64,000 bases of DNA from Escherichia phage CMSTMSU: sequence record MH494197.1. One strand, 5' to 3'. The notes beneath the pieces were generated by a model. That model was not told the DNA's origin, did not search any database, and was given only the letters and a program-made list of their open reading frames with translations. Position numbers and translations under genes: made by a program. The first letter of the stretch is position 1, and each line of letters opens with the position of its first letter. Of the stretch, positions 48,162-63,717 are shown piece after piece.

Positions 48162-48877
48162 AGGGACTCCATTAAAAATAATATCAATCCCATAATATAC
48201 GATTCATATAAAAGTCAATAACATTTTATTCGTAATACCCTTTATCGAAGTCGCTAAGGTTACCCGCCCTTTAGCCCCTACGCATTTTGCCATAGTCCAA
48301 TCCTTTTATTCATAAAAGTCAAGGGATTACCTATGCATTTTTTAACGCTGAAGTTTAAAAATGCCTTGACTTTTTATGATTCAGTACTAAATCCTTTTAC
48401 GCATTAATCCTTCGTTACGCTTACGATTATCTGTGTATCCCCATAGTCCTGCCATACTTCCACGCCAGCCGTCGCCCGGTTAGTCGTGCTGTCATCTGCT
48501 TAATGGTCTTAGGCTTTAGTGGAACCTGTTGCAGTACTGTACGCATAGTATCATCGACGTTATCGTGTACGCCTGCAATAGTGCCTAGGACGCTGTATAC
48601 GTGTATAGAACATATGTATGCCCTCCTGATATAGTTAAGGCCGCTACAAGGCGGCCTATGATGTTTGGTGATGTGTAACGCTTACAGTCCTAAGATAGTG
48701 CGTGCTTCGTTACGTTCCGTGCACAGCTGCATGATGTGAGCAAGTAAGTCCTTGCTAATGTATCCGGTGTTCATAGCTTCACGAATAGATACATCATAAG
48801 CACCGAACCCGTGCGAACGATACGCACATCATTCAGGTTAGTATTATAGATACCGCCGAGATCAACGGCTTCGAATA

Positions 48878-49081
48878 CTACATCAACAGAATATTCATTG
48901 TTGCCATCGTGGAAGTTTTCCAGTGCAATAGTATTGGATACCGCCCAACGTTTGCAGTTTCAATGATGCGGCACTGTTCCGGTTGGATAGTGCCATTACT
49001 TACAGCGTACTCCAGTGCATCTTTACCAAAAGTCCGAGCCAGTACTAAAACGTCAGCGAAGGAAGTGATTGAGAAGGTCAT
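48878..49081 (-). CDS. hypothetical small protein (67 aa), probably continues beyond a frameshift
   Basis: ATG MTFSITSF... with AAGGAG SD directly downstream of a promoter/stem-loop cassette; the track merges it with the upstream gene because no stop intervenes. Confidence 0.4.
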   Translation of the reverse strand: MTFSITSFADVLVLARTFGKDALEYAVSNGTIQPEQCRIIETANVGRYPILLHWKTSTMATMNILLM

Positions 49082-49099
49082 GATAAAACTCCTTAATTT

Positions 49100-49161
49100 A
49101 GGAGGGAGAACCATTTCCTCTCTATGTAAAACATTATACATGAATCTAAGTACTATGCAAG
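49100..49161 (-). promoter_or_regulatory. PeSL-like cassette (promoter plus 5' stem-loop)
   Basis: minus strand TTGCAT - 16 nt - TATAAT, then short hairpin, then SD/ATG. Confidence 0.5.
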
Positions 49162-49164
49162 TAC

Positions 49165-49498
49165 TTTTACATTTTAATACCGGATTCAGGTAGCGGTGAG
49201 ATCCATATTCTGGATCGGTTTCGGTCCAGTACTGTAAATCGATAGTACCTTTCGCGTTAATCTTGTCTACCAGCTTATTCATCTTAGCGTATACTACGTC
49301 AGCATCGATGCGTTTAAAGCCAGTAGCTTTAGTGAAGTAGTAGTGATTTGCTTCACTATCATTAAGGATATACCGAGCACCGTTTGCCGTTTGTGCGATA
49401 ATGATTGAGTATTCTACGTTACGGTCGAGGCCGTCGATGAATACAGAGGAAACATTAGTACGGATGAAAGCTTTAACGATAGCGATTGAAGTAGTCAT
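49165..49498 (-). CDS. hypothetical protein, 3' end unresolved
   Basis: MTTSIAIVKAFIRTN...; reading frame runs through the downstream cassette without a stop. Confidence 0.35.
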
Positions 49499-49587
49499 TT
49501 TGAATCTCCTAACTTTGTGGGCCGTCGCACCATTGCCGCCCTACGAGATACATTATTGCAGTACTGATATACTTTGTCAATACTTTT

Positions 49588-49725
49588 TATTAATAGTTTT
49601 AGTTCCACCAGCAGATAGTTACTCACCGTTATTAACTATATATTTTGGATACACCTATGCACCCTGTGGGCTAGTTTTTGTCTATGCGTATATATAGCAG
49701 GACTGACCGAGTCAATCCCTTTTTA
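49588..49725. repeat. ~130 bp repeated intergenic element, copy 1
   Basis: shares ATGCACCCTGTGGGCTAG ... TATATAGCA(A)GGACTGACCGAGTCAATCCCTTTTT with copies at 52.3, 55.6 and 60.1 kb. Confidence 0.6.
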
Positions 49726-49956
49726 TTCTTTTTGTTAGATGATTCTCCAATCATCAACGATCATGGTAAGATACCGAACCAGTGATTCGAGTGATTCGTG
49801 TTCTCGATAGTCTGCCGCTCCACCAGCGGTACAAGTACAGCCGATTAAGCCGTTTTGTAGTTCCGGATCTTTACGTCGATCTGGTTGGCTTTAGCTTCTT
49901 TCAGTACTTCAACCGGGCGAGAGCGATAGACATAATGTTTTACTCCAAACTATTGG

Positions 49957-50016
49957 CGGGAGAACTATTCCCCGCTCTATGTAAAACATTATACATTACT
50001 GGTTAGTACTGTCAAA
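49957..50016 (-). promoter_or_regulatory. PeSL-like cassette
   Basis: TTGACA - 16 nt - TATAAT on minus strand, hairpin GCGGG...CCCGC just downstream. Confidence 0.55.
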
Positions 50017-50022
50017 TAGTTT

Positions 50023-50280
50023 TTATGAAATATCTTCGATGTAGTCGGCCCATTTCATTTTTTCAGTACTGTCAATGGCTACCGGATTATTTGGATCAAA
50101 CCATTCACCATTACCGCAGTACATACCCACGGCTACGGTTTTATAGCCATCCCGGGCCGCACACCACGACATTGCACGATAGATATGGCCTTTAACTGGT
50201 TGCAGTACTGGTAACGTTTTATGGTCTTCTACGTAGGCCATAGCTTGTGGATTTACCCGATATTGTGTGAACTGTTCCAT
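50023..50280 (-). CDS. hypothetical protein (85 aa)
   Basis: track ORF; promoter-like sequence upstream. Confidence 0.45.
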   Translation of the reverse strand: MEQFTQYRVNPQAMAYVEDHKTLPVLQPVKGHIYRAMSWCAARDGYKTVAVGMYCGNGEWFDPNNPVAIDSTEKMKWADYIEDIS

Positions 50281-50593
50281 TATGTTTCCCCTTGTAGTTA
50301 GTAAAGTTATTACATCAGTACTATCAAGCTATGTCAATAGTACTGAAATAAAACTTTTAGATTAGATTATTGAGGCCGTCAATGGTAGACTCACTTTCTT
50401 CTTTCTCCCATTGTCGGTAGTACTTCCATGCTTCATGATAGGTGGCGATCAGTTCATCTTTTGATCCGGTTACATGCCAGTACTGAATCACGGTGAGCGG
50501 TGTTATAGATAGAATCGAATGATTTCTTCTCTTCTGCCGTTAGCTACTTCCCGCATCAGTTCATCAAAGTTAGCCATTTTATTACTCCTTTTA

Positions 50594-50650
50594 GTGGGGA
50601 GGATATCTCCCTATGCAAAACATTATACTTTGTTTTAGTTATTATGCAAG
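50594..50650 (-). promoter_or_regulatory. PeSL-like cassette
   Basis: TTGCAT - 15 nt - TATAAT; hairpin GGGAG GATAT CTCCC. Confidence 0.5.
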
Positions 50651-50902
50651 TACTTTTTCATATAAACATTAAATTCTACACCGCCGTAACCTTCCACGAT
50701 GATATGTTTTGCGTTATCACGTTTGCACATAGTGAAACCATCGTTTACGTGTTTTGCATTTTCGGGCGACATCACCGATAGCGGCACATACGGCACTAAT
50801 AACAGTATTCCGCAAAGTACTGGTATCATTGGCGGTCATAGTAGTTTGCAGTACTACGTTGTCGTATACGTGTGCATTGATAGTGATTTCGATAGTGTTC
50901 AT
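50635..50902 (-). CDS. hypothetical small protein, frame-shifted
   Basis: ORFs 50717..50902 and 50635..50829 overlap in two frames and look like one gene. Confidence 0.35.
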
Positions 50903-50916
50903 GGTGTATCTCGACT

Positions 50917-50978
50917 GGCGGGAGAACTATTCCCCGCTCTATGTAAAACATTATACGTTAATCTAACTACAATGCAAG
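50917..50978 (-). promoter_or_regulatory. PeSL-like cassette
   Basis: TTGCAT - 16 nt - TATAAT; hairpin GCGGGAGAACTATTCCCCGC. Confidence 0.55.
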
Positions 50979-51233
50979 TACTTTTAAATTTTATTTCCGA
51001 TATAGTCCGGTCTATTCTTTTCGGTCATACGCTTTGCTAATGTTTGCATATGGCTTATTGCTTGTAGTGTATCCTCTTCCGGGATGAATCGAGATAATCA
51101 GGATCATTCTTCACCTTGCAATGATTATGATAGCGTAGTACTGCCAGTACTTTTTAACTTCTTCTACTGTCATAATAAGTACCCACTTCGTTAGCTTTCA
51201 GGTTAGTATCAATCATCAGTGGATTTTTGTAGT

Positions 51234-51440
51234 TCACAAAACGAGTAGTTTTCTCGATAGCGAATCCCATATAATCCAGCTTACTAACAGTACATTCATT
51301 CTTAAAACTTCTTTCGCTGCATCGATGGCTGATTGCATGGATAACCGACCATCTAAATTAATGTTTCCAAATGATCCACCAGCAGAAGTAGGATTACCGT
51401 TCATATCTTTAATGATCATAGTAGCGGAGTAGCTGGACAT
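51234..51440 (-). CDS. hypothetical small protein
   Basis: track ORF 68 aa; AAGGA SD; cassette immediately upstream. Confidence 0.45.
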   Translation of the reverse strand: MSSYSATMIIKDMNGNPTSAGGSFGNINLDGRLSMQSAIDAAKEVLRMNVLLVSWIIWDSLSRKLLVL

Positions 51441-51463
51441 AATTTTGTTTCCTTTTATTGGTG

Positions 51464-51520
51464 TGGGAGAACTATTCTCCCTTGATGTAAACTATTATAC
51501 AGTACTGATATACTTTGTCA
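51464..51520 (-). promoter_or_regulatory. PeSL-like cassette
   Basis: TTGACA - 16 nt - TATAAT; perfect hairpin GGGAGA ACTAT TCTCCC. Confidence 0.6.
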
Positions 51521-51559
51521 AATACTTTTATTCGCCCATATAGATTAGATTATCATCGC

Positions 51560-51930
51560 CTACATAGGATCGCAAACGTTGATTTCTTCGCAGTACTTCG
51601 TGAATACATCGCCATAGTGACCTAAACCACGATCCCAAAACCAGTTCCGTGACCTTCGCGGGTAAGGAACAGATCATGACCAGCTTGCTCATAACCGTAA
51701 TCAATAAACATACCGCGAACTACTTCCAGATCATTACCGTGTTTCTCAATGAAGCGAGAACATGCAATCACTGCCGCTTGATGGGCTTGCTCTGATAATT
51801 CATAATCTTCCGTAATCGCCGTTCTCATTGTGTACAGTACTGAATTGCATAGCTTCAATGTAAGCTACAACCATTGCAGCATGATTTTTATCGTTAGTGA
51901 TGTTCCGAGCGAGATTAGTAGTAGTAGACA
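51560..51930 (-). CDS. hypothetical protein, frame-shifted
   Basis: ATG MSTTTNLARN...; continues in two other frames through ...REGHGTGFWDRGLGHYGDVF... Confidence 0.35.
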
Positions 51931-51951
51931 TGATTTTATTCCTTTTAGTAT

Positions 51952-52009
51952 CGGGGAGAACTATTCTCCCTTGATGTAAACTATTATACAGTACTAATAT
52001 ACTTTGTCA
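51952..52009 (-). promoter_or_regulatory. PeSL-like cassette
   Basis: TTGACA - 16 nt - TATAAT; hairpin GGGGAGAACTATTCTCCC. Confidence 0.6.
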
Positions 52010-52254
52010 ATACTTAATTACGTTTAAAATGATATGTGCCTTTATCATCCTGTACGCCCCATACTGATTTACCATCAACACCAGTGAAGCCGGATTGTAA
52101 TTCAATATGGAAACCATTATTATCAACTACAAAAACTTTTTATTTTCATCCCGATAACATTGATATTCTGAATCAACATTAAAGGCCGCATCATTCAGAA
52201 GATTAGAAGCGTAAATGCAAGTCATTGTAGTCATGATTTTATTCCTTATTGCCG

Positions 52255-52308
52255 TGGAACCGTTCCTCTCGATATAAAACATTATACTTGATTCTAAGTA
52301 TAATGCAA
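52255..52308 (-). promoter_or_regulatory. PeSL-like cassette
   Basis: TTGCAT - 16 nt - TATAAT; hairpin GGAAC C GTTCC, stem sequence differs from other copies but pairing is kept. Confidence 0.55.
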
Positions 52309-52311
52309 GTA

Positions 52312-52446
52312 CTTTTTAAAATAGTTTTCAGTACTGAATACTTATATAATAGATACACTTCCGCACCCTATGGGTCAGTGAGTTATCTCTCAATGGATAT
52401 ATATAGCAAAGGACTGACCGAGTCAATCCCTTTTTAATCTTTTTAT
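52312..52446. repeat. ~130 bp repeated intergenic element, copy 2
   Basis: CGCACCCTATGGGTCAGTGAG...GGACTGACCGAGTCAATCCCTTTTTAATC. Confidence 0.6.
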
Positions 52447-52507
52447 CGTGTTACCTTACTTGCTGCCACATCACGCTTTTTATAGTACTGATTCCAGATA
52501 TTGCTGG

Positions 52508-52825
52508 TTAAACCGTAATCAAGTACTTTAATAAGTCCATTACGATCCCGCCGATATTCTGTTTTCTGATATCTCTTATCGTTAGTGTTGATAATGTATC
52601 ATCGACGTGTTGTAGTGCATCAGCAAAGCGGTGCTGGCGTTCAATGGCATTACGTTTAATATTGTACTTTAATTCATTGCACGCGTTTACGTGCTTTACA
52701 CTGCCTTTACTTGCAGTACTCAACCGATCCATAACGATAAACATATTATCAGGATCGCATAAATGCATATGCACCTTTGCAAAGTACTGTTTCAACTGAG
52801 GGCGGTCATAGTCTAAAAATTCCAT
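52508..52825 (-). CDS. hypothetical protein (105 aa)
   Basis: track ORF. Confidence 0.45.
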   Translation of the reverse strand: MEFLDYDRPQLKQYFAKVHMHLCDPDNMFIVMDRLSTASKGSVKHVNACNELKYNIKRNAIERQHRFADALQHVDDTLSTLTIRDIRKQNIGGIVMDLLKYLITV

Positions 52826-52891
52826 ACCTTACATTCAGTTTCATTTTGTTCGACACCCGCATCACAATTCGCGACCTTAATCACTAACCGA

Positions 52892-53080
52892 TCATTTAAA
52901 GCGAAAACTATACGGGAAGATCCGCCCGATGATCTCCAGTCCAGCTAACCGACAAGCTGAAAGGATCTCTTTGTTGGTTTCCATTTCTGACAGTGTACGG
53001 ATGAATTTAGTATAATTACGCATTGCATGTTCTCCTTGAGTTAATGAAACTATATTACAGTACTTTACTATCAATGGCAA
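52892..53080 (-). CDS. hypothetical small protein
   Basis: track ORF 62 aa. Confidence 0.35.
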   Translation of the reverse strand: MPLIVKYCNIVSLTQGEHAMRNYTKFIRTLSEMETNKEILSACRLAGLEIIGRIFPYSFRFK

Positions 53081-53296
53081 CTACTTTTTAACATTAACGG
53101 CGTGAATCACTTCCTTAGTGTTTTTAGTACTGAATACTTTCGCCGCTCCTTGTTCGACCGTGATACGATAGCGACCATTAACATCAACCATATTAATAAA
53201 GTCCGGCGTGCTGAATGGTGTTGTTTTGCATTTGAGTACTGTTAACAGTTCCACCAGCGATGTAGTTTCTTTGATACGTTTTTCTAAAGTAATCAT
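53081..53296 (-). CDS. hypothetical small protein
   Basis: track ORF 71 aa; promoter-like repeat upstream, also found before the next gene. Confidence 0.4.
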   Translation of the reverse strand: MITLEKRIKETTSLVELLTVLKCKTTPFSTPDFINMVDVNGRYRITVEQGAAKVFSTKNTKEVIHAVNVKK

Positions 53297-53434
53297 TTTG
53301 TTTCTCCCCGTGTTGGTATGTACATATAGTACTAAAACATTTGAGTACTGTCAATTAGATAATATTATATTTCTTAAAATAAAATGCGTCTTGTGTTGGT
53401 TGATACTCGATACCGTTACCGTTATTGACTTCAA

Positions 53435-53629
53435 CTAATAAACCTTTGTCAATAAGTTTTTAATAGTACGATACCCTTGTTGAAAATTGGTAAAATGTGA
53501 ATCATTACGAAAGGTATAACCGTGCTTAACTGCTTCATCAATAGTTTTCTTTTCGATTTTAGATAATTTCATTTTGTTTCTCCCGTGTTGGTATATGTAC
53601 ATAGTACTAAAACATTTGAGTACTGTCAA
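53435..53629 (-). CDS. hypothetical small protein
   Basis: track ORF; likely start at internal MKLSKIEKK with GGGAGA SD. Confidence 0.4.
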   Translation of the reverse strand: MTVLKCFSTMYIYQHGRNKMKLSKIEKKTIDEAVKHGYTFRNDSHFTNFQQGYRTIKNLLTKVY

Positions 53630-53890
53630 CGTGATATTAGTTTTATTTTCTTATTGTATTGTTGATGCTCATAAAGGTTTATCTTTCCTGTGTTCTCGAT
53701 TACTATCCTGTTGTTAGTGTCCACATCGATTACACGCAGTTTCCGTTGCTTAACTTCCGGGTAATAGGTTACCATTAATAAACTCATTAGCAAGCTGTAC
53801 GGCCTTTGTGATGATTCTCTTCGGTGCTTTATAGTGTACCCGTAAGATGTTATCTTTATATAGTTGAACCTTAATCATTTTGTTTGTCCT

Positions 53891-53916
53891 ATAAAAAGGC
53901 GGGAACTGATCCCGCC
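53891..53916 (-). terminator. rho-independent terminator (minus strand)
   Basis: stem GGCGGGA/TCCCGCC, loop ACTGA, followed by U-run in minus transcript. Confidence 0.6.
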
Positions 53917-54423
53917 GTGTTGTTAGTACTGCAAGTTATTAGATAACCGGCGGCGTTTACTGTATACTGTTACACGATTACCCTTACGGTCGTGTCGGAT
54001 CTCTTTCTGGTTGCGAATCAGTTCACTTGGACGCTTAAGGTTTGCCGTGATCCGCGTGAGTCCATGCATTGGCATTTACCTGTACTTTGATATCAGAACC
54101 AGCGATAAACTCATCTTGTGCGTCAGTATTGCCGCCAGCATATCCGCTCGTTTTAGTTCTGCTGCTGTTAGTACTGGCTCAGGTGAATTCACAATATCAG
54201 AGATCTTTGAACTGTACGGCCCAGCGTTGGCCTTTCGGTGCATCTTTGCCCATGTCTTTAAATGCTGCTCCTTCCTCGCGTGCAACAATACGGGCAGCTT
54301 CACGGGTAGCGTAGAATTTAGTAATCATGGTATACATCCTATTAGTTAAGTTAGTACTACAAGTTAGAGTCTATTATAAAGTACTATCTGGGCAATGTCA
54401 AATAGTACTTTAAATGGATTCTA

Positions 54424-54745
54424 TTACATGTCTTTCTTACGTTTTACATCGTGGTAGCGAACTGTTATTTCTTTGTTGATCTCTTCCTCGATGCGGTGAA
54501 TAACTTTTTCTTTCGGGTTGAAACCTATAACGGTTTCTTTAATGATCTCAAGCCCGTGTATTCGCCTTGTGTACCGTAACCGTATGTAAAGGTTTCGTGT
54601 CCCGTGTCTTCCAGCGGTCGCCAATTAACGCAGACACGTAGCAAGAGTGGTAAGTATTGCCGTGTGAATCAGTCCACCGATTAACGTTAATGTCAAAGGA
54701 GGTTACAATTTTCAATTCTACTTTCTGGGCAAGGATCATAGCCAT
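54424..54745 (-). CDS. hypothetical protein, frame-shifted
   Basis: MAMILAQKVELKIV...NVNRWTDSHGNTYHSCYVS; two overlapping track ORFs. Confidence 0.4.
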
Positions 54746-54764
54746 TTTATTTCTCTCTTTTAGT

Positions 54765-54825
54765 TAGGAGGAACCATTCCCTCACTTGATGTAAACTATT
54801 ATACAGTACTAAGATACTTTGTCAA
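54765..54825 (-). promoter_or_regulatory. PeSL-like cassette
   Basis: TTGACA - 16 nt - TATAAT; hairpin in 5' leader. Confidence 0.55.
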
Positions 54826-54843
54826 TACTTATTTTTGGAAAGT

Positions 54844-55008
54844 TTACGCATTAATTCTACGCTTTCTTGTGAACGTTTTGCTACCGGCAAGCTGCATGGG
54901 TAGTAAACATTTTGTATAGTCTGACGCTTTGCCACCGAACCGAGCGGCACGTTCACGGGCACTTGGAACTAATACTATTTCTTTCTTGCAGATAGTGCAC
55001 TTAGCCAT
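54844..55008 (-). CDS. small Cys-containing protein (54 aa)
   Basis: MAKCTICKKEIVLVPSARERAARFGGKASDY...; own cassette upstream. Confidence 0.4.
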   Translation of the reverse strand: MAKCTICKKEIVLVPSARERAARFGGKASDYTKCLLPMQLAGSKTFTRKRRINA

Positions 55009-55027
55009 TTTATTTCTCTCTCTTTGT

Positions 55028-55089
55028 TAGAGGGGAACCGTTTCCTCACTCGATGTAAACTATTATACAGTACTAAGATACTTTGTCAA
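55028..55089 (-). promoter_or_regulatory. PeSL-like cassette
   Basis: TTGACA - 16 nt - TATAAT; hairpin GGAA ACGG TTCC. Confidence 0.55.
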
Positions 55090-55093
55090 TACT

Positions 55094-55366
55094 TAATTAT
55101 TGTAAATGTCGTGAATAGTGATAAAGTTTTTACGACCGTAAACCTGCAAATCAATATCAATGTAGTGCTTATCTAGTACATCCTCGACGCTTAACGCGGT
55201 GTCGTGGATATCTTCGTAGAATTGAGTATCTACAATCTTGCTTAAGTCATCCGGCGTTAACTCATCGTTAAGCAGTTGAACCGCCGGATATCTGCTTCAC
55301 GTTTCCAGTCTTCCAGTTAGTAGTCAGTACTTGTTCGATTTCGTTAGCTGTCAGTAGAATCCGCAT
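55094..55366 (-). CDS. hypothetical protein, frame-shifted
   Basis: MRILLTANEIEQVL... then ...LLNDELTPDDLSKIVDTQFYEDIHD... in another frame. Confidence 0.35.
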
Positions 55367-55547
55367 TTTTATGTTTCCTTATCAGTGGTTGATGTAAGTA
55401 TTATACTCGTTTACTTTCTATTGTCAAACTATTTTATCAGGGAGTTTTTCGTATGTCTTACTCGACTACTTAACGGGGTTACTTGTTTCGTTCCCCGTCC
55501 TGATGTAAAACATTATACTTGATTCTAAGTACAATGCAAGTACTTTT

Positions 55548-55670
55548 TAAAAATAGTTTTCAGTACTAGCCACCAGCAAACAATAGATACATTTATGCAC
55601 CCTGTGGGCTGATTTGTTTCTATGCGTATATAATAGCAAAGGACTGAATCCCTTATTCAATTATTTTTAA
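55548..55670. repeat. ~130 bp repeated intergenic element, copy 3
   Basis: ATGCACCCTGTGGGCTGA...TATAATAGCAAAGGACTGAATCCC. Confidence 0.55.
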
Positions 55671-55816
55671 ACTTCTTTCGGGTTGCGATAGGTGATAGCG
55701 TTCGGGTACATTTGTTTAATGTTATTCCATGCCCGGTTGACATTGTAACCACTTGATCGAATCAGTTGGTTACTACCGACACCTTGAAACACTACTTCGA
55801 ATAAGAATTCTTTCAT
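55668..55816 (-). CDS. small hypothetical protein (49 aa)
   Basis: MKEFLFEVVFQGVGSNQLIRSSGYNVNRAW... Confidence 0.3.
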
Positions 55817-56286
55817 GCTTTCACCTCGCGATCTGCTTTACCTTTACGCCGACATTACTAATTGTTCGCGTTGCCATAAGTCGAGTGATACAAAAGTTTT
55901 GCGGTATCACTTTTAGGATACTCGCCATTAGTACCTAACCGATAAAACAGATCTTTCAGTACTGATAATTCTACTTGGATCATTATACTTTCTCTTTGTT
56001 GGGAGGGAACTATTCTTCCGATATAAAACATTATACACTTTATTCAGTACAAGTACTTTTAATCTTTCAGCCAATGATCCTGAATGAATTTTTCACCGGA
56101 ACCTTGCTGCATTGATTGTAACAGACGTTCACGATGAGCGGCGGCGAATTGCTCAGTACTATGCGTTACACCGGTTGATATCTGGATTCACCATTGGGGC
56201 TGATGTATTGTACATCCCACGGTTTTTCGTTAGTATCAGACCATTTACGAACGATTAGTTGACCTTGCATTTTTCTTTCTCTTAGT

Positions 56287-56346
56287 GGGGAGAATCATTT
56301 CTCCCCTTCATGTAACTTATTATACAGTACTAGATTATCTTGTCAA
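56287..56346 (-). promoter_or_regulatory. PeSL-like cassette
   Basis: TTGACA - 16 nt - TATAAT; perfect 8 bp hairpin GGGGAGAA TCAT TTCTCCCC. Confidence 0.6.
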
Positions 56347-56351
56347 TAGTT

Positions 56352-56636
56352 TTATTCACCTTGTTTGAATTTAGTTTTCTCCATTGATTCCATGATTGCA
56401 ACCAATACGCCGTGGATCTCGCTTAACGCGGAATCACTAAAAGCATTAATGAATAGTCGATCATTCTCGCGAATATTTTTAATGTACTTTTCAGCAGTAG
56501 TTGCGAATTCATTCAACGGTAGATCAAATGCTTTATCCCATGATGGATGGCGTAATTGTAACAGTACTGGATTATCACGATCACGGGAAAACGTACCAGT
56601 GATGAAACATACGCCCGAATACTTTCGAACTGGCAA
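56352..56636 (-). CDS. hypothetical protein (94 aa)
   Basis: track ORF. Confidence 0.45.
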   Translation of the reverse strand: MPVRKYSGVCFITGTFSRDRDNPVLLQLRHPSWDKAFDLPLNEFATTAEKYIKNIRENDRLFINAFSDSALSEIHGVLVAIMESMEKTKFKQGE

Positions 56637-56959
56637 CGGACTTCCTTTGTGATAGTAGTATGAATGTACATTTATTGTTATCCTCTATTAAATTAATATT
56701 ACAGTTTATGAATCAATTCTTTATCTAAGCGATAGCGTACATTATTAATAGTAACGGCATTGTTTTAATGCTACGCTGTACAGGTCCACCAGCAATAACA
56801 AATGTTGCTTTATTACCCCGAACAATGATAGCACTTCCGTGATTACCGAAATCATCTTGTACTAAAATACTTGATAAGTTTTCCATTTTATTTCTCTTAG
56901 TAGGGAAGATGTTTCCTTGATGTAAGTACTATAACAGTACTGAAAACTAATTGCAAGTA

Positions 56960-57313
56960 CTATGATAAAATCATGATAGGATATTCACTATCGATCAGTA
57001 CCTCGAATCCGAACCCTTCGTACCATTCTTTAAGATTAAAGGCGTTATCTTCTCCGTATCGCATTCTAAGATGATACAATCTGAATCATCAGCGGCATCG
57101 ATAAAGGCATTCATTAATTCGTTACCTTCACCATTGCCCCGACTATCAGGATCAACATAAAGAGAATCAATGAAAGCAACACGGTCATAATCAAGATCCG
57201 GTGCAATGATTCCACGTTTAACAAACCAGTACTGCAATTGTGCTACTTTGCTGTACCTGATAACCAGTGATCTCGCCATTGTCAGTAGTACGCGTGATAT
57301 GTTGTATTCCCAT
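56960..57313 (-). CDS. GNAT-family N-acetyltransferase-like small protein, frame-shifted twice
   Basis: acetyl-CoA-binding motif ...VDPDSRGNGEGNELMNAFIDAA... and C-terminal ...EWYEGFGFEVL... readable across three frames. Confidence 0.5.
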
Positions 57314-57962
57314 GATTTCTATCCTCAGTTAAGATATAAAACATTATACACTATCTTTCAGTACTGTCAATTACTTTTATCTCATAGATCTATGCCAACA
57401 ATTACGCGGATCTCTTTAAAAGTACTATCATGATCCTCCGGCAAGTAATACAATACATGCACCTATAACGGCCCGGCGTCGATTCTCAGGGATTTTACCG
57501 CCGCAGTCGAGGCAATGTACAGTGATTCTCTTTGTGCGTTAATTTGCTTTCTAGCGTGGTTAACGGCGGCCTGAATCACTGCGTTAATCTCGTCTTGTTC
57601 GGCCCCGTCTTTCGCGAATCCTACAGCCATTATTTTAACCTCATTATAAAAATACTATAGTACTGTAATGCTACAATAATACTACTAGTGCTAATCTTAT
57701 TCAAACCACATGATACTACATATCCACCAGCATTACCACGGATAGTAACGCCTTTGTACTGTCTATATAAATTCAACTGCGTATATTGCCTTTGATCAAG
57801 AATTGATCAGAATTATACGCCTTATGCTAAATTGATCCAGTACTTTTGATCATTTATTGATCGATGTTATATAGTTACATTTGTGCACCCTATGGGTTAG
57901 TGACGTTCTCGTCTTGATGTAAGTATTATGCCAGTACTGGAGGATATTGTCAATAGATTATT

Positions 57963-58160
57963 TTAATTTTTTCTATCATTAATTAATGCTTTCAGTACTA
58001 TACTAATAACTTGCAATGATTCATCAATGACAATGAAATTATTCTCTTTCATTAGATGATAGTTACCATTGATTGTATATTCTAACGAGTACTGTTTACG
58101 TTTAATTTTTGATAATGTTTCTATTTGTTTTTGTACTGATTTCATGCTAATCATTGTCAA
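57963..58160 (-). CDS. hypothetical small protein
   Basis: track ORF 65 aa. Confidence 0.35.
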   Translation of the reverse strand: MTMISMKSVQKQIETLSKIKRKQYSLEYTINGNYHLMKENNFIVIDESLQVISIVLKALINDRKN

Positions 58161-58983
58161 ACGTCCTGTAACGCATTCTAACGAGATAAACGGTTGAGTA
58201 CTGGCATTGTATAGGGTAATGATTAAAGCCCACCAGCGTTAACCAGTGGGCTATAATCTTACATCTTGCGGATAATCTTAACAGTATCTTTCACCGATTT
58301 ACCGTTTTGCTGACATTGCTCGATCATCGCGTATTGTTCTGCGGTCAGATCCTCGCCAGTTTTTGCCAGTACTGCGTCGATGAATGAATCCAGTGCGATC
58401 ATTTTGTTTCTCTCTTAGGTTAAGTTAACTACTGTTTATAAAACTTATTATACAGTACTATCAAACTATGTCAATAGTACTGGTAATATATTTTAGCGGT
58501 AGTCGTCGTATGCTTTATTCACGGCGAATATAACTTTCAAAGGCTTCGTCTACCGTTTCATACTCCCGAACATAATCACCATATGAAACTACATACATAC
58601 CTTTTGATCTTCAAACGTCATGATGATAGAATCCAGACCAACGATTTCAGTTTTTGCGATGATAGCCATTTTTAATTCCTTAGTAGTGTAGTTGATAAAA
58701 GTTATTATGTCAGTACTATCAAACTATGTCAATAGTACTGTGATAATATTTTAGTTAATGATAGTCAGTGTAAAATTGTAATCCCCTGCCCGTATAGTAC
58801 TTTATCGCCGAACGTTCCAACACGTTTCATATTGCAATAGATACCCATAACACTTTTACATCTTTGATATTCCGAACGCCAGTAATATCCTTGTTTAAAT
58901 GATCGTGATCAGAAAATAAAACTTGTTTTGCATTTTTCAGTACAGTGCAGATATTAGCCATTTTGTTTTCTCTTCTGTTAGTG

Positions 58984-59041
58984 GGGAGAAGTTTTTCTCC
59001 CTTGATGTAAACTATTATACAGTACTATAATCTATTGTCAA
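58984..59041 (-). promoter_or_regulatory. PeSL-like cassette
   Basis: TTGACA - 16 nt - TATAAT; hairpin GGGAGA AGTTTT TCTCCC. Confidence 0.6.
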
Positions 59042-59414
59042 ACTATTTTTTATATTATTCGAAATCTTCTGGACCGGACTGATAATCATCTTCACCGTAT
59101 GCACTTTCTAACCGCTCGCCAGTGCAATCATCAGTTAGTGAGTCATCCTCATAGTTCACGTCTACGCCAGTGATGTAAAACTGGCTATCGTCTGGATCAT
59201 TGAAATTAATTTTCTGGATGTTTACAATAACTGTATTGATGCCGTGACACCGCCATCAGCCGTTACAAAGTACTGATATTTTTCACAACCGCCTGAATTG
59301 AAACCGTAATTAATTTCGGCCCGACCATCACTTAAACGCAGTGTCTGAGCGATGATTTCATTTTCAAAGTTAGATTGAGCAATTGCAATAGTCATGATTT
59401 GTTTCTTATTATCA

Positions 59415-59471
59415 GGGAAACCGTTTCCCTTTCGATGTAAAACATTATACGCTTATCAGGAAGTAATGCAA
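59415..59471 (-). promoter_or_regulatory. PeSL-like cassette
   Basis: TTGCAT - 16 nt - TATAAT; hairpin GGGAAA CCG TTTCCC. Confidence 0.55.
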
Positions 59472-59957
59472 GTACTATTTCACGTTAATTTCAAAGTACT
59501 GCTCTTTGATGTTTTCCTGTTGGTAAATCTCGTTTAATGCTTTAAGATCTAAAACCTGTTTACCTGCTGCCTGAATATACTTTTAAGAGTCGCTAACAGC
59601 TTCTCAGGCGTGTTTGTAGTCTTACGTGTTGGGATCTTATCGTGCCCCATAGCGTAGTACTGCTTACGTGCTATAGTACTGATAACACTGCGGTACGGTT
59701 CCATGATCAGCTTGTCTGTATTCGTCGCTATCCCCAAACTTCATACCGTGGATCGCAAAGGTCATCATCATGCGGTCGTTATCGCGGATATTGTGGGGCA
59801 GTCGGCAAGCTCGCGAGTCAGTGACATAGTGATCCCCACGTCGCCACCCAGCGGTAAAGGTCGGGCGATAAAGAAACCGTTAGGGAATACTTTCAGGAAG
59901 TTTTCTTGAACTGCTGCGACGAATTCGATGCTATTCATAATTCATTTCCTTAATTAG

Positions 59958-60015
59958 TGGGGAAGTTGTTTCCTCTTGATGTAAAACATTATACGCCTAT
60001 TGAGATAGTTTGCAA
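59958..60015 (-). promoter_or_regulatory. PeSL-like cassette
   Basis: TTGCAA - 16 nt - TATAAT; hairpin GGAA GTTGT TTCC. Confidence 0.5.
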
Positions 60016-60032
60016 GTACTTTCTACAAATAC

Positions 60033-60160
60033 TTTTAAAATAGTTTTCAGTACTCAATACTCATATAATAGATACACTTATGCACCCTGTGGGCTAGTGA
60101 GCTATCTCTCAATGAATATATAATAGCAAAATGGCTGACCGAGTCAACCACTTTTTCATT
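60033..60160. repeat. ~130 bp repeated intergenic element, copy 4
   Basis: ATGCACCCTGTGGGCTAGTGAGCTATCTCTCAATGAATATATAATAGCAAAATGGCTGACCGAGTCAACC. Confidence 0.6.
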
Positions 60161-60271
60161 TATTTTAGCTTTTAGAATCGCCGCCTTTCGCGTCATGCCT
60201 TGCTTGATGTATTCTGTACTTTCGCTTTACGTGCATTCGCTTTATTTGCTTTCGTAAACGCCGAACAACTT

Positions 60272-60580
60272 TTATAGTTTAAACCTGTTGGATTCATTTA
60301 AATCACCATAAAGAATAGATAGGTTACTAACAACGCCGCGATCAATGCACCGACCGAACTGTAATAAGCTAATGATCTCATTTTTAGCCTGAAAATAATG
60401 TTTAATTTGAGCGGCGGTCAGTGCACAATTACGCAGGAAGTTTTCTGTATAACTTTTGCGAGTACTGAAAGAGAATTGACCTTTGCTGCTGCCGATAGTA
60501 ACATCAAACCGAGCGTTGTATTGTTTCATTTTGTTTCTCCTGTTATTGGGGAGAATCATTTCTCCCTTCATGTAAAACAT
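60272..60580 (-). CDS. hypothetical protein
   Basis: track ORF 102 aa; probable start at internal MKQYNARFDV. Confidence 0.4.
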   Translation of the reverse strand: MFYMKGEMILPNNRRNKMKQYNARFDVTIGSSKGQFSFSTRKSYTENFLRNCALTAAQIKHYFQAKNEIISLLQFGRCIDRGVVSNLSILYGDLNESNRFKL

Positions 60581-60605
60581 TATACAGTACTAAAACTAAT
60601 TGCAA
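60548..60605 (-). promoter_or_regulatory. PeSL-like cassette
   Basis: TTGCAA - 15 nt - TATAAT; hairpin GGGGAGAATCATTTCTCCC, identical to copy at 60771. Confidence 0.55.
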
Positions 60606-60770
60606 GTACTATTTTTAGATTTACGCAAACTTTCTACCATCTCAGGAGTAAGGTCTGCGGGTAGGAAACTACTTCATCAACGAAACGTAAAGGAATACCC
60701 CAGCGAAAGGTGAACGTGCTTTCTTAGTATTACTCTTTTTGATGCTTTCATTTCATATTCTTAATTAGTG

Positions 60771-60827
60771 GGGAGAATCATTTCTCCCTTCATGTAAAAC
60801 ATTATACGCGTTTAAAACTAATTGCAA
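60771..60827 (-). promoter_or_regulatory. PeSL-like cassette
   Basis: TTGCAA - 15 nt - TATAAT; hairpin GGGGAGAATCATTTCTCCC. Confidence 0.55.
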
Positions 60828-61691
60828 GTACTATTTGAAAGTAAATGCTCATACGCTACATTAACTACGTTTTCAATAACCGACTGTACAGAAAGATCCC
60901 CACTTCCGGCTATAGTAGAAATCGCTTACAGTAGTGTCATCGTATGCAAATACTTTACCGTGACTGCATCAATCACATACATATTAACCTTTAAGATGTC
61001 GATCTTATCCTGTACAGTAAGCATATTAATTAACCTTTTAAGTACTGACTTAAGTAATCTTGTTGATCTTCGGTGATTGCAGCCATCTTCCCTAGTACTG
61101 GATTAATGATATAATCCCTGTAACGTCCTGTAACGCATTCTCAGGCGGTTTAACGGCTGGGGTAGCCATAGCCATTGCCGACTTGTTCGACGCTGTAACG
61201 CTCATAAAGGCGGCATTCTTCCGGTGTTAACATAGCATCAATGCGTTTCATTGGTTTAATGATGCTTTCGATCTCATTCAGTACTTGATTAACGTTCATG
61301 GTATAATCCCAATATAAGCGGCCTAAATCGACCGCTAACGATGTTTTGATTAATAGGTGTATGGTTGACGTTCAAACAATGATTGCACGTTGTACGCCCC
61401 GCTTATGGGCTTTGCTGGTAAATCAATTTTATATTGTTCACGCTTAAAGATAATAAAACGGCAATTGTTTTAACATCAAAATTGATTGAACGTTCCGAGT
61501 TTACCATCGTGCACAAATACAAGATAACCGCTCGCTACTTGTTTTGTAGTACTGGTTGCAACCATAGACCGCCGAACATGTGTACCTGCGTCGATTAAAG
61601 TACTGATATTTTTCATTTTACTATCCTCTTAAGTTGATTTAATTTCTTTCCCTATGCAGACACTGTACCAAAGTATCTGCATAAAGTAAAG

Positions 61692-62013
61692 CTAATTAAA
61701 GATCTTTTTACGTTTTACATCCTGTACAGTACAATGCAACGGGATAGACAAATCATTGCACAAACGATAGAGGGAGGTTTCATCAGTATTAAGCCCGTCT
61801 ACTGATTCCTTTAAGAGAGATAACGCCGTTTGTTGGTATGCATCTTCATAGCCATAAGTAAATGATTCAACCGCCAGATCATTCAAGCCGTTATCCAGTT
61901 CGACGCTTACATGACAAGAATGATGTATTGCCATATGAATCAGACCAACGTTTACCGTCAACATTGATTGCACGGATTGCAGCCGAAACGGTGTTAATGA
62001 TAGTTTTAGCCAT
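61692..62013 (-). CDS. hypothetical protein, frame-shifted; paralog of 54424..54745
   Basis: MAKTIINTVSAAIRAINVDGKRWSDSYGN then ...HHSCHVSVELDNG...; shares RW-x-DS-x-GN-x-YHSC-x-VS with 54424..54745. Confidence 0.4.
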
Positions 62014-62263
62014 TTTAGTATTCCTTAAATTAATATGTGTCGTCTTGATAAAATCTATTATGCCAGTACTATCAAACTATGTCAATAGTACTGTGATAAT
62101 ATTTTTACTTACTTTTTGCTTTCTTTATTGCTTCCACCGGTCGGCCCATTCTTTACCCCATACTTGTAAATTATAATGGTACTGGCAAAGTGCAACGCCC
62201 CGCTTTAAACCAGTAATAGATTTTTACCACATTGACAAGTTTTCATTTTAGTTTCCTTGTAGT

Positions 62264-62321
62264 GGGAGAACCATTTTCCCCTTGATGTAATGTATTATAC
62301 TTTATTCGATTTACTTTGCAA
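62264..62321 (-). promoter_or_regulatory. PeSL-like cassette
   Basis: TTGCAA - 16 nt - TATAAT; hairpin GGGAGAACCATTTTCCC. Confidence 0.5.
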
Positions 62322-62338
62322 GTACTTTTTAATTTAAT

Positions 62339-62551
62339 TCATCCGTAAAGGATACGCTCAACGCCCAAATCAGTTAAACTAATCGACGGCACTTGATAGG
62401 TTTCAATGTATGCTACACTTGCCCACTGACCGAACTCATTAACGGCCGTATTCATTGCATTTTGCAATTCCACACCTTCCTTGTTGGTAATGACTGCAAC
62501 TACTTGTTCGTTGCCAGTAGTACCAGATACGCGAGTAATGATAATAGCCAT
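62339..62551 (-). CDS. hypothetical small protein
   Basis: track ORF 70 aa. Confidence 0.4.
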   Translation of the reverse strand: MAIIITRVSGTTGNEQVVAVITNKEGVELQNAMNTAVNEFGQWASVAYIETYQVPSISLTDLGVERILYG

Positions 62552-62986
62552 TTTTTAATTCCTATTCAGTAGTTGATGTATGTATTATGCCAGTACTTAA
62601 AACTATTGTCAAACTATTTTTAAAGTTTATCAATGATTGATGCCGTTTCATTGATAGTCTTGCCGTGTTTTGCACACGCGATAACTGCTTTAAATTCCTT
62701 TGATGACCAATCTTTCTTACTGCATACTGACATTACTTGTAAAGTAAAACAATCCAGTTCATAAGTATTCATCTTTATATCCTCAGTTAGTTAAGGTGTC
62801 TGCCTTGATGTAATTAATTATACGCTAATCTCTTAATCGTGCAAGTACTTTTATTACTTTTTGCAAAATACTTTAAACGCTCTCAATCGCATTACAACGA
62901 CCTTAACGCCACCAGCTAGGCAATGCATCAGATAATCAGTTTAAAGCGTTAGAATCGTTTCTAGGCGGTGCTGGTGGCGTAAACGA

Positions 62987-63015
62987 TAAAAAAAGCCCAC
63001 CGTTTAAGGTGGGCT
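62987..63015 (-). terminator. rho-independent terminator (minus strand)
   Basis: 8 bp GC-rich stem AGCCCACC/GGTGGGCT, loop GTTTAA, followed by 7 U in minus transcript; 13 nt downstream of stop at 63028. Confidence 0.7.
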
Positions 63016-63027
63016 AGTGATTCAGTT

Positions 63028-63406
63028 TTATGCTTCAACTTTGCGATGAGCTTCGATCCATTCCTCGCGAGTCATACCACTGGAGTTAATCGCGTCCAGT
63101 ACTACCGCAATGCAGTTACCACGCACCGGAATCAGATATTCTTCCCGTTGTACTACCGCTACGCGTTCCTGAATCCATTTTTGGCTTTTACTTCTGGCTT
63201 GTCTTCCCATACTTAACCGCCGTGGCTTTTGTGCCATCTCTGTAACTACTTCCAGATCCAACTACTGCCGCCTGAATACTTTCGATTGTTGCTTGTAGTT
63301 CTGCTTCACGGGCCGCCTTTGCCGCTTCAATTTCTGCCGCTTTATTTGCTTGTAGTTCTTTCGCAGTACTGTAAGCGATGTTAAAATTATTGCGTACCGC
63401 TTTCAT
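63028..63406 (-). CDS. hypothetical protein, frame-shifted
   Basis: overlapping ORFs 63188..63406 (Ala/Glu-rich, coiled-coil-like) and 63028..63261. Confidence 0.35.
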
Positions 63407-63690
63407 GGTATCGTTATCCAGTTCAGCCGGATCTCAGCCGCGACGTTAGTTTCATTTGCACCAGTGCTTTGATGAATGATTTTACATTAGCCATTTTATA
63501 AATCCTCAATTAAAGTTTAGTTTACGTTTATTAGTGTATCAAAGTTTTCTGACGTGTCCAGTTTTTCGTTCGACTTACTGGCGGTCTACTTAGTGCTCCC
63601 CGTCTTGATGTAATACATTCTACGCCTTTTTGCGGTAATGTCAACTACTTTCTTAAAACTATTTTCAAAGTATCTCAGTACTACGATACT

Positions 63691-63717
63691 ACAAAACAAA
63701 AAGCCCACCCGTGGGCT
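63691..63717 (-). terminator. rho-independent terminator (minus strand)
   Basis: stem AGCCCAC/GTGGGCT with U-rich tail in minus transcript. Confidence 0.55.

Follow-up and report, generated by a model that had tools for sequence, protein, structure and literature searches.

What kind of element is repeated along the minus strand of a stretch of 64,000 nucleotides from Escherichia phage CMSTMSU (record MH494197.1; the whole stretch is referred to here as the window), where dozens of small genes are preceded by a sigma70-like promoter and a hairpin? The preliminary description of this DNA compared these cassettes with the promoter early stem-loops (PeSLs) of RB49-type T4-like phages and considered the region, from 48200 to 63717, an unusually large instance. 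The comparison raises the questions of which phage group the region belongs to, what the hairpin does and whether the cassettes take part in the exchange of genes. The results indicate that the array is probably the inner two-thirds of a ~21-kb direct terminal repeat (DTR), built as an array of self-contained early-expression modules.

Megablast of the array region returned Asteriusvirus genomes (Rak2-like jumbo coliphages 121Q, PBECO4, G17, JP4 and WPEC3) with 92-95% identity. Judging from these matches, the window is part of an Asteriusvirus jumbo coliphage with a ~350-kb genome and not of an RB49-type T4-like phage. Rak2-like phages join the T4 superfamily only in portal and capsid trees (Buttimer et al. 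2017, PMC5259590). The counterpart of the array in vB_Ec-M-J is annotated as a direct terminal repeat of 21,525 bp (1-21,525), and Klebsiella phage Muenster, with the same layout, has a PhageTerm-predicted terminal repeat of 20,030 bp (1-20,030). The inner limit of the repeat was placed in the window as follows:

48257-48257, no strand: inferred inner DTR boundary, to which both base 1 of the WPEC3 record and the tandem DTR junction of JP4 map

The DTR extends from 48,257 past 64,000. The left limit first given for the array is essentially this boundary; its right limit is cut by the window end, which corresponds to WPEC3 position 16,073, and the WPEC3 array goes on to ~20.9 kb (about 5 kb more). 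The curated annotation of G17 contains 47 coding sequences (CDS), with a median of 78 aa, in 16.7 kb, and nearly all of them are hypothetical.

The window sequence was compared with four independent Asteriusvirus genomes over 48257-62115, which revealed ~150 small deletions per 14 kb (~1 per 90 bp) and only ~4 insertions, 73% of the deleted bases being homopolymer. This pattern looks like uncorrected long-read or pyrosequencing error, probably across the whole window. The broken frames of most small open reading frames (ORFs) in the window, and hairpin G/C runs that are one base short, are due to these deletions. The broken ORFs were also considered as pseudogenes, and this was rejected in favour of assembly error, given the deletions relative to the four genomes. 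Since the window is shortened in this way, structural statistics were taken from the relatives.

Cassettes were searched with a strict regular expression (TTGnnn, 15-19 nt, TAnAnT) and with an nhmmer profile built from its matches. The expression gave 23 minus-strand matches between 49,160 and 63,644; each of them precedes a conserved 'gttttacat', and in most a hairpin comes next. The profile returned 29 matches with E<0.01 and ~5 weaker ones. Every one of these is a minus-strand match inside 49,090-63,665, and there was no further match with E<0.1 anywhere else in the 64-kb window. The promoters are strong: a consensus scan revealed eleven perfect 12/12 sites (TTGACA-16-TATAAT), on the minus strand only. 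About 20 of the 34 window cassettes have a hairpin whose stem begins 10-14 nt past the -10 and is followed by a Shine-Dalgarno (SD) sequence and ATG. These counts bear out the ~27 minus-strand copies, the TTGACA or TTGCA(T/A) then TATAAT promoters and the order of hairpin, SD and ATG described before. The stem GGGAGAA/TTCTCCC described with them does occur in the window, but the true stem in accurately sequenced relatives is GGGGAGAA/TTCTCCCC. The cassettes and weaker sites are given below, with E from the nhmmer profile, bits from a covariance model, hairpin folding energy in kcal/mol, and 12/12 or 11/12 from the promoter consensus scan.

63592-63665, minus: cassette, TTGACA-16-TAGAAT, structured leader GACGGGGAGC... 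~110 nt before ATG (E 2.3e-11)
62774-62858, minus: cassette aAGTACTTGCAC-16-TATAAT, weak hairpin in the window (E 2.1e-12)
62584-62625, minus: hairpin-less promoter TTGACA-17-CATAAT, AGTACTG abutting the -10 (11/12; weak nhmmer match)
62251-62335, minus: cassette, hairpin GGGGAA/TTCTCC, then SD and ATG (E 3.9e-16; 43.4 bits)
62041-62094, minus: hairpin-less promoter TTGACA-17-CATAAT between two AGTACT sites (E 0.0016; consensus scan)
60751-60845, minus: cassette, hairpin GGGAGAA-atga-TTCTCCC, -10.1 kcal/mol (E 1.9e-17; 55.5 bits)
60529-60621, minus: cassette, AGTACT at -35 and -10, hairpin GGGAGAA/TTCTCCC (E 2.8e-18; 54.8 bits)
59942-60036, minus: cassette, hairpin degraded in the window (-2.6 kcal/mol), -9.3 in the WPEC3 orthologue (E 2.4e-16)
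59399-59492, minus: cassette, hairpin AGGGAAA-cgg-TTTCCCT, -10.6 kcal/mol (E 1.8e-17)
58965-59058, minus: cassette TTGACA-16-TATAAT, hairpin GGGAGAA/TTCTCCC, -10.3 kcal/mol (E 4.1e-17; 12/12)
58693-58742, minus: hairpin-less promoter TTGACA-17-CATAAT (11/12; E 0.19)
58408-58493, minus: hairpin-less cassette TTGACA-16-TATAAT (E 2.1e-7; 12/12)
57812-57857, minus: weak promoter-like site with a different hairpin, TGATCAA...TTGATCA (E 0.53)
57325-57389, minus: hairpin-less cassette TTGACA-16-TATAAT, upstream of a GNAT acetyltransferase gene (E 1.1e-7; consensus scan; Pfam on the WPEC3 orthologue)
56891-56971, minus: cassette TTGCAA-17-TATAGT, hairpin -2.4 kcal/mol in the window, -11.5 in WPEC3 (E 7e-6)
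56272-56358, minus: cassette TTGACA-16-TATAAT, hairpin GGGGAGAA/TTCTCCCC, -13.9 kcal/mol (E 1e-13; 63.2 bits)
55990-56062, minus: cassette, hairpin degraded in the window, -16.4 kcal/mol in WPEC3 (E 3.8e-7)
55491-55560, minus: cassette, long leader hairpin GACGGGGAAC...CCCCGTT, no ORF close downstream (E 1.2e-14)
55376-55445, minus: hairpin-less cassette TTGACA-16-TATAAT (E 3.1e-4; 12/12)
55014-55107, minus: cassette TTGACA-16-TATAAT, hairpin -6.2 kcal/mol in the window, -12.9 in WPEC3 (E 4.1e-17; 44 bits)
54751-54844, minus: cassette TTGACA-16-TATAAT, hairpin GAGGGAA/TTCCTC (E 7.9e-16; 45.3 bits)
54329-54422, minus: hairpin-less cassette TTGACA-17-TATAAT (E 1.1e-7; 12/12)
53056-53096, minus: weak promoter-like site (E 0.0025)
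52238-52328, minus: cassette, hairpin degraded in the window, -12.8 kcal/mol in WPEC3 (E 7.9e-15)
51934-52024, minus: cassette TTGACA-16-TATAAT, hairpin GGGAGAA-tag-TTCTCCC, -10 kcal/mol (E 1.4e-16; 43.6 bits)
51446-51534, minus: cassette TTGACA-16-TATAAT, hairpin GGGAGAA-tag-TTCTCCC, -10 kcal/mol (E 9.3e-19; 41 bits)
51134-51158, minus: weak promoter-like fragment (E 0.23)
50905-50997, minus: cassette, hairpin GCGGGGAA/TTCTCCCGC, -10.7 kcal/mol (E 3.6e-18; 29.3 bits)
50578-50667, minus: cassette, hairpin GGGAGA/TCCTCCC, -7.9 kcal/mol; -15.0 in WPEC3 (E 3.3e-13)
50316-50348, minus: weak hairpin-less promoter TTGACA...TGTAAT (E 0.63)
49949-50035, minus: cassette TTGACA-16-TATAAT, hairpin GCGGGGAA/TTCTCCCGC, -10.4 kcal/mol (E 6.6e-17; 33.3 bits)
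49558-49600, minus: promoter TTGACA-17-AATAAT, different G/C hairpin, -12.3 kcal/mol (E 0.0077; consensus scan)
49090-49179, minus: last cassette of the array, hairpin -9.6 kcal/mol; -15.9 in WPEC3 (E 2.4e-16; 38.3 bits)

The order within a module is an A-rich UP-like tract, the -35, 16 nt, TATAAT, gTTTTACAT, an 8-bp G-rich/C-rich hairpin and, ~10 nt later, the SD and then the ATG of the gene, which is small (median ~78 aa). The cassettes, each of ~90 bp and 70-95% alike, number more than 40 and lie in direct orientation. Among the 172 distinct cassettes of the relatives, the -10 is TATAAT in 155 and the -35 is TTGACA (57), TTGCAA (50) or TTGCAT (31), and the spacer is 16 nt in 142 of 165. The consensus upstream of the -35 is AAAAAGTA, an A-tract, and the start region reads GTTTTACAT or AGTTTACAT. 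The hexamer AGTACT is present in 142 of the 172, where it overlaps the -35 edge (aAGTACTTGCA), abuts the -10 (cAGTACTGTATAAT) or does both; two sites in one cassette are ~20-21 bp apart. Two sub-types can be distinguished in this way, aAGTACTTGCAw... and TTGACA...cAGTACTGTATAAT, and they are interspersed in runs rather than alternating as first described. Neither is there one cassette for each small gene: the ratio is about two per three genes, and 26 of the 47 G17 genes have their own cassette directly upstream, with intergenic gaps clustering at 80-95 bp. Two window cassettes (leaders 63574-63604 and 55457-55499, minus strand) carry a long structured leader, GACGGGGA...AGTAAG, of ~70-110 nt in place of the usual hairpin and gene, and their G17 equivalents have no annotated CDS directly downstream. 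They may produce non-coding transcripts or long 5' untranslated regions (UTRs).

Concerning the hairpin, the accurately sequenced relatives have stems such as GGGGAGAA/TTCTCCCC, GAGGGGGAA/TTCTCCCTC and GCGGGGGAA/TTCTCCCGC, with folding energies of -13 to -16 kcal/mol. A strand-neutral hairpin finder detected at least 6 Watson-Crick pairs in 97 of the 148 distinct downstream regions of the relatives. Stems are mostly of 8 bp with loops of 3-5 nt, and their first base lies 10-15 nt past the -10 (mode 12). Purines make up 88% of the 5' arm, which occurs in 47 different sequences, the commonest being GGGGAGAA (21 of the 97 hairpins). Moreover, a covariance model of the -10 and the hairpin matched 110 times in the window and the DTR loci, as against no match in 100 kb of 121Q sequence from outside the repeat. 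In its alignment, 96.5% of the cells pair and seven of the eight pairs change on both sides (72 cells); none of 500 shuffles and no slid control matched the observed pairing and covariation values. Internal non-Watson-Crick positions, counted with the hairpin finder, are G·U on the sense strand in 24 cases and A·C in 3, and A·C on the sense strand would read G·U on the antisense strand. Because G·U outnumbers A·C, and judging from the compensatory changes, the hairpin is selected as a sense-strand RNA structure and not as a sequence, a palindromic operator or an intrinsic terminator. RNAalifold on MAFFT alignments missed the hairpin because the stems were out of register, and the covariance model and the custom hairpin finder were used instead. 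No relevant Rfam family was found at gathering thresholds in the whole window or at E<=1 in 48-64 kb.

Judging from its sequence and position, the hairpin is unlike the stem-loop of most PeSLs. PeSLs are described from the T4-like phages RB49/phi1, PST/T4 and nt-1/KVP40 (Arbiol et al. 2010, PMC2839356; Comeau et al. 2014, PMC4122927), and the definition in PMC2839356 is used here. The array shares with them a promoter identical or close to the Escherichia coli sigma70 consensus, an AT-rich tract upstream of the -35 and a stable polyG...polyC stem-loop inside the motif (GGGG...CCCC, 97 of 148 cassettes), followed by SD and ATG. It also shares their concentration in a hyperplastic region of small ORFans (the window and 100 kb of 121Q were free of cassettes beyond the DTR), and insertions, deletions and replacements between close relatives that are bounded by the motifs. 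On the other hand, PeSL stem-loops mostly lie between or over the -35 and -10 and act as terminators, whereas the cassette hairpin lies downstream of the -10 and of the predicted start, is transcribed in the 5' UTR with RNA-type covariation and is not followed by a T-run. None of 85 hairpins has at least 5 T in the next 8 nt, and hence, from the sequence, the hairpin is a 5'-UTR element and not a terminator; SD and ATG follow it in 82 of the 85, the median distance between the end of the stem and the ATG being 20 nt. PeSLs reside in T4-like myoviruses, whereas this array fills the terminal repeat of an Asteriusvirus, and the cassettes carry AGTACT at fixed positions as a further difference.

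If the cassettes were true PeSLs, their stem-loops would be terminators or attenuators that insulate each module from upstream read-through, as shown for PeSL211/210 of RB49, and one of the five PeSL sub-classes does have its polyG/polyC stem-loop downstream of the -10 (PMC2839356). The stems of the accurate genomes, GGGG...CCCC, are of this polyG/polyC kind. Nevertheless, a terminator located past the predicted start would stop the module's own transcript 20 nt before the ATG, the T-run is lacking in all 85 hairpins, and dedicated terminators exist separately, both as simple intrinsic terminators and as the hairpins of a second repeated unit, here called element B. This makes a true PeSL very unlikely. 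The simple terminators in the window are the following:

63702-63717, minus: intrinsic terminator AGCCCACGGGTGGGCT, then TTTTGTTTT (consensus scan)
62994-63015, minus: intrinsic terminator AGCCCACC-ttaaac-GGTGGGCT, then TTTTTTT (consensus scan)
58227-58252, minus: terminator-like hairpin AGCCCACTGG..CTGGTGGGCT, then TTTAAT (from sequence)
53898-53916, minus: intrinsic terminator GGCGGGATCAGTTCCCGCC, then TTTTT (consensus scan)

Together with composites containing element B, the intrinsic terminators divide the array into short units. The similarity to PeSLs proposed in the preliminary description therefore stands for the promoter, the A-rich tract, the polyG/polyC stem, the ORFan array and the junctions, and fails for the RB49-type genome and the terminator role. 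As far as genome comparison can tell, the analogy holds for behaviour in genome evolution and not for strict family membership. Nor is the array exceptional for its clade, since an equivalent array was found in every relative examined.

What, then, could a hairpin at this place do? From sigma70 promoter geometry, the probable transcription start is the A in the conserved CAT, 7-8 nt past the -10, which would leave the hairpin 3-6 nt from the predicted 5' end. The 5'-terminal stem-loops of ompA and papA are mRNA stabilisers according to the works listed in PMC3997798 (Emory 1992; Bouvet & Belasco 1992). They likewise have a stable hairpin near the 5' end, directly before the ribosome-binding region, and what is conserved in it is the structure and not the sequence. 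The cassettes differ in that the distance of the hairpin from the 5' end is a predicted one and in that the element is repeated more than 25 times in one 21-kb region. By this analogy, the hairpin could be a 5'-terminal stem-loop shielding early mRNAs from RppH/RNase E 5'-end-dependent decay, a reading to which we give somewhat less than an even chance. It may also keep the leader from occluding the SD.

Several observations weigh against this view of the hairpin. The alignment was fitted to the covariance model, which inflates the pairing percentage, and sense and antisense folding energies show no overall asymmetry, so that the strand call depends entirely on the G·U to A·C count. The start site of the Asteriusvirus cassette is itself a prediction; shifting it to the A two bases earlier or later gives a predicted unpaired 5' tail of 3-8 nt, and at least five unpaired 5' nucleotides reportedly weaken ompA-type protection. 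Furthermore, about one third of the cassettes have no hairpin. It is common in Asteriusvirus, Munch and Alcyoneusvirus, whereas the CBB and BF clades mostly lack it yet keep AGTACT-flanked promoters, and the PA5oct repeat has neither the cassette nor AGTACT enrichment. Its absence from these cassettes and clades means that the hairpin is not essential for early expression.

The same arms could instead form a switch of translation or decay, in which the CU-rich, anti-SD-like 3' arm (UUCUCCCC) pairs either with the 5' arm or with the SD, or in which a RegB-like endoribonuclease brings early expression to an end by cutting at GGAG; T4 RegB cleaves GGAG in early mRNAs. Pairing of the 3' arm with the downstream SD region was indeed found in several cassettes (plus-strand hairpins 58967-58991 and 60534-60555; cassette 49138), and the commonest 5' arm, GGGGAGAA in 21 of 97, would suit such a nuclease. 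Nevertheless, the 5' hairpin is always the more stable alternative and many stems have no GGAG (GGGGGAA, GCGGGAA, GGGAATGAA, GGAGATTCCA), and a switch appears improbable to us.

As to transcription, host RNA polymerase with sigma70 would fire the cassette promoters upon DNA entry, with no phage factor needed, and early mRNAs protected by a 5' hairpin would yield a burst of host-takeover proteins. For the first step we rely on the promoter consensus and on RNA-seq of the distant relative PA5oct, whose DTR genes are highly transcribed early and dominate the 5-min transcriptome in an infection that is rifampicin-sensitive (Lood et al. 2020, PMC7318152). In CBB, predicted RpoD-like promoters with an UP element precede short early ORFs; of the 18 reported for the whole genome, three lie in the repeat (PMC5259590). 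The array resembles what has been described for CBB and GAP32, and for PA5oct, which belong to its clade or are distantly related to it: short early ORFs behind sigma70-type promoters that have an UP-like element, and early DTR genes that depend on the host polymerase. In contrast, the hairpin, AGTACT, element B and a recombination role are all unmentioned in PMC5259590 and PMC7318152. The DTR encodes a GNAT acetyltransferase (Pfam, on the WPEC3 orthologue) and a DksA/TraR zinc-finger protein, and a kinase match was sub-threshold; these are weak hints at host takeover as the function of the DTR genes. Immediate-early transcription by the host polymerase is proposed by analogy with PA5oct.

The host-takeover module of SPO1 would be the closest functional analogue of the whole region. 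The terminal redundancy of SPO1, as outlined in PMC6873191, spans ~12 kb and holds two dozen small early genes with strong host-sigma promoters and ribosome-binding sites, presumed to serve host takeover. The array likewise lies inside a direct terminal repeat and has many small genes, strong host-sigma promoters and strong SD sequences. It differs from SPO1 in its host, which is Gram-positive for SPO1, in the unrelated phage family and in having nearly one promoter per gene instead of operons. The passages on this module in PMC6873191 describe no repeated 5' hairpin cassette or cassette-mediated shuffling.

Seen from the left physical end, the genes and promoters of the DTR are directed inward in each of the five genera examined. 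This orientation would also fit a mechanical role like that of the T7 A1-A3 promoters, in which the 350-kb genome would be drawn into the cell by host RNA polymerase as it transcribes inward. Three promoters suffice for T7, however, and the hairpins and the one-promoter-per-gene layout would be left unexplained; such a role is highly improbable as the main one. If the early-expression reading holds, the present work provides a map of ~45 likely immediate-early genes, and the cassettes are compact natural strong-promoter and 5'-UTR parts for E. coli.

Moreover, the cassettes coincide with the places where related repeats differ. Six Asteriusvirus repeats were aligned in pairs and the alignments chained, and wherever an indel or replacement measured 60 bp or more, its edges were recorded. 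Cassettes make up 20-23% of the array and contained 58-69% of the junction edges (p = 1e-7 to 1e-10 for each reference). In a control with the curated G17 genes, 20 edges fell in cassettes, to which 17.5% of the bases belong; coding sequence, with 70.9% of the bases, had 16 edges, the remaining intergenic DNA (8.5%) had 4 and element B (3.1%) had none. Viability of intergenic events only, that is, selection, could partly explain this enrichment and weighs against a direct role; with non-coding DNA alone (G17 curated annotation), 20 of 24 edges were in cassettes against 60% expected, a modest excess (p = 0.014).

One-gene indels of 156-455 bp made up 16 of the 45 pairwise events, at 12 positions. 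In these, the single cassette of the shorter genome aligns to both flanking cassettes of the longer one with an overlap of 40-125 bp, the pattern that marks direct repeats having recombined. The window offers one such case: a gene flanked by cassettes 59,399-59,492 and 59,942-60,036 is absent from vB_Ec-M-J, with an overlapping junction. Genome comparison thus shows that the cassettes have a role in recombination; as for its mechanism, co-oriented cassettes would act as portable homology, and recombination between them would add, delete or swap single-gene modules. The same has been proposed for PeSLs, where recombination from motif to motif gives mini-circles (Arbiol et al. 2010, PMC2839356).

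The modules also occur outside the clade. The unrelated Vequintavirinae phage A7_1 (145 kb) contains at least nine gene modules with 72-90% nucleotide identity in scrambled order, several with cassettes (L007 6371-11587 and 15744-15954, against window 48756-62559). One A7_1 cassette is of the AGTACT-bearing form and A7_1 itself has no AGTACT excess (6 found, 5.1 expected), which suggests transfer from a Rak2-like donor. Similar module matches were observed in phages A5-4, W70 and nepoznato. Hence, the PeSL concept of regulatory cassettes that double as recombination linkers is extended beyond T4-like phages to Rak2-like terminal repeats, with quantitative support from the six-genome comparison and with the same modules present in an unrelated coliphage family.

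Element B is a unit of ~105 nt with five copies in the window and 8-10 per repeat in five Rak2-like genera; nhmmer found none outside the repeats, in PA5oct or in A7_1. The window copies are:

60051-60156, minus: hairpin with -35 TTGACT, T-tract into -10 TATTAT, ~50-nt segment ending ...CCCACAGGGTGC...TGTATCTAT (E 1.6e-28)
57856-57959, minus: variant, TTGACA-17-CATAAT promoter, then GACGAGAACGTC..CCCATAGGGTGC (E 2.1e-18)
55567-55669, minus: copy (E 1.9e-21)
52332-52435, minus: copy (E 5.1e-26)
49632-49724, minus: copy (E 1.6e-22)

Its hairpin, GGGG-TTGAC-ttcg-GTCAG-CCCC, contains the -35, and the T-tract runs into the -10 (TATTAT). The consensus scan flagged 60154-60128, inside element B, as terminator-like, and the G17 annotation labels these hairpins terminators. 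With a hairpin over the -35 and a T-tract, which by sequence give it the terminator feature of PeSLs, element B fits the original PeSL layout better than the cassette does. The ~50-nt segment forms a small hairpin with compensating stem changes and holds an invariant (A/G)CCCAyrGGGTGC and TGTATCTAT; RNAalifold recovered the ACCC/GGGT hairpin only, and element B had no Rfam match. Element B may be a small RNA or an antitermination signal. Some copies are found in convergent pairs near the repeat start (WPEC3 L003 19176-19270, plus, and 19366-19280, minus).

AGTACT is in excess well beyond the cassettes. The window contains 240 copies against 21 expected from base composition (~4 per kb), and the over-representation is 11-20x across the clade. 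It reaches 20x in Rak2-like repeats, with no excess in PA5oct or A7_1:

G17 repeat locus: 105 found, 5.4 expected
Muenster repeat: 157 found, 6.7 expected
BF left-end locus: 145 found, 7.2 expected
Munch left-end locus: 145 found, 9.9 expected
CBB repeat: 143 found, 7.3 expected
121Q replication/structural region: 84 found, 16.7 expected (5x)
PA5oct repeat locus: 4 found, 15.3 expected

A coding artefact was rejected, given that AGTACT occurs inside genes in all three codon phases, and a larger promoter motif outside the repeat was rejected too, the flanks being informative only as C at -1 and G at +1. A Markov-4 expectation was uninformative because the pentamers already carry the excess. AGTACT-free islands at 33-40 kb and 43-48 kb of the window correspond to 7-14 kb and 1-4 kb of 121Q L011 and are conserved. 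AGTACA is enriched as well, with strand asymmetry, in the early region (102 against 27). A literature search for AGTACT in jumbo phages found no published mention, and no promoter or stem-loop description was found in the RaK2 paper.

This excess, together with the two fixed places of AGTACT in the cassettes and the ~20-21 bp between paired sites, would speak for a DNA operator, in which a dimeric phage repressor binds the inverted repeat or the flanking AGTACT palindromes and shuts off or times the early promoters. Nevertheless, the 47 arm sequences, the compensatory changes and the 24:3 G·U bias favour an RNA structure. AGTACT is not promoter-specific, since it is also frequent within genes (~4 per kb), with no other flanking motif there, and the repressor or binding protein is hypothetical. 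Taken together, an operator is doubtful, and the RNA hairpin of the early-expression modules is still preferred.

A broader proposal, to which we assign a rather low probability, is that the cassette is one part of an undescribed clade-specific regulatory system with AGTACT and element B as further parts. AGTACT could be recognised by a factor, encoded by the phage, that binds or modifies DNA and in this way marks phage DNA and times the early promoters. It may be speculated that element B is a nut/put-like cis-acting antitermination signal, which, if true, would allow transcription that starts in the repeat to continue into the promoter-poor block behind it, with its more than 100 genes. Either the AGTACT excess or element B could reveal how very large phages organise and time transcription.

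Regarding the surroundings of the repeat, window positions 1-48000, behind it, hold more than 100 tightly packed, often overlapping, same-strand hypothetical genes without matches to the cassette profile, with tandem arrays of ~70-aa paralogues at ~42.5-48 kb. No tRNAs were found. On the far side of the repeat (WPEC3 L003 22806-27208; 121Q L009 1359-5195) there is a tandem array of ~20-25 back-to-back paralogous genes of ~62 aa, which is AGTACT-rich (7-11 per kb) and adjoins five or six RCC1-repeat 'DNA condensation' genes.

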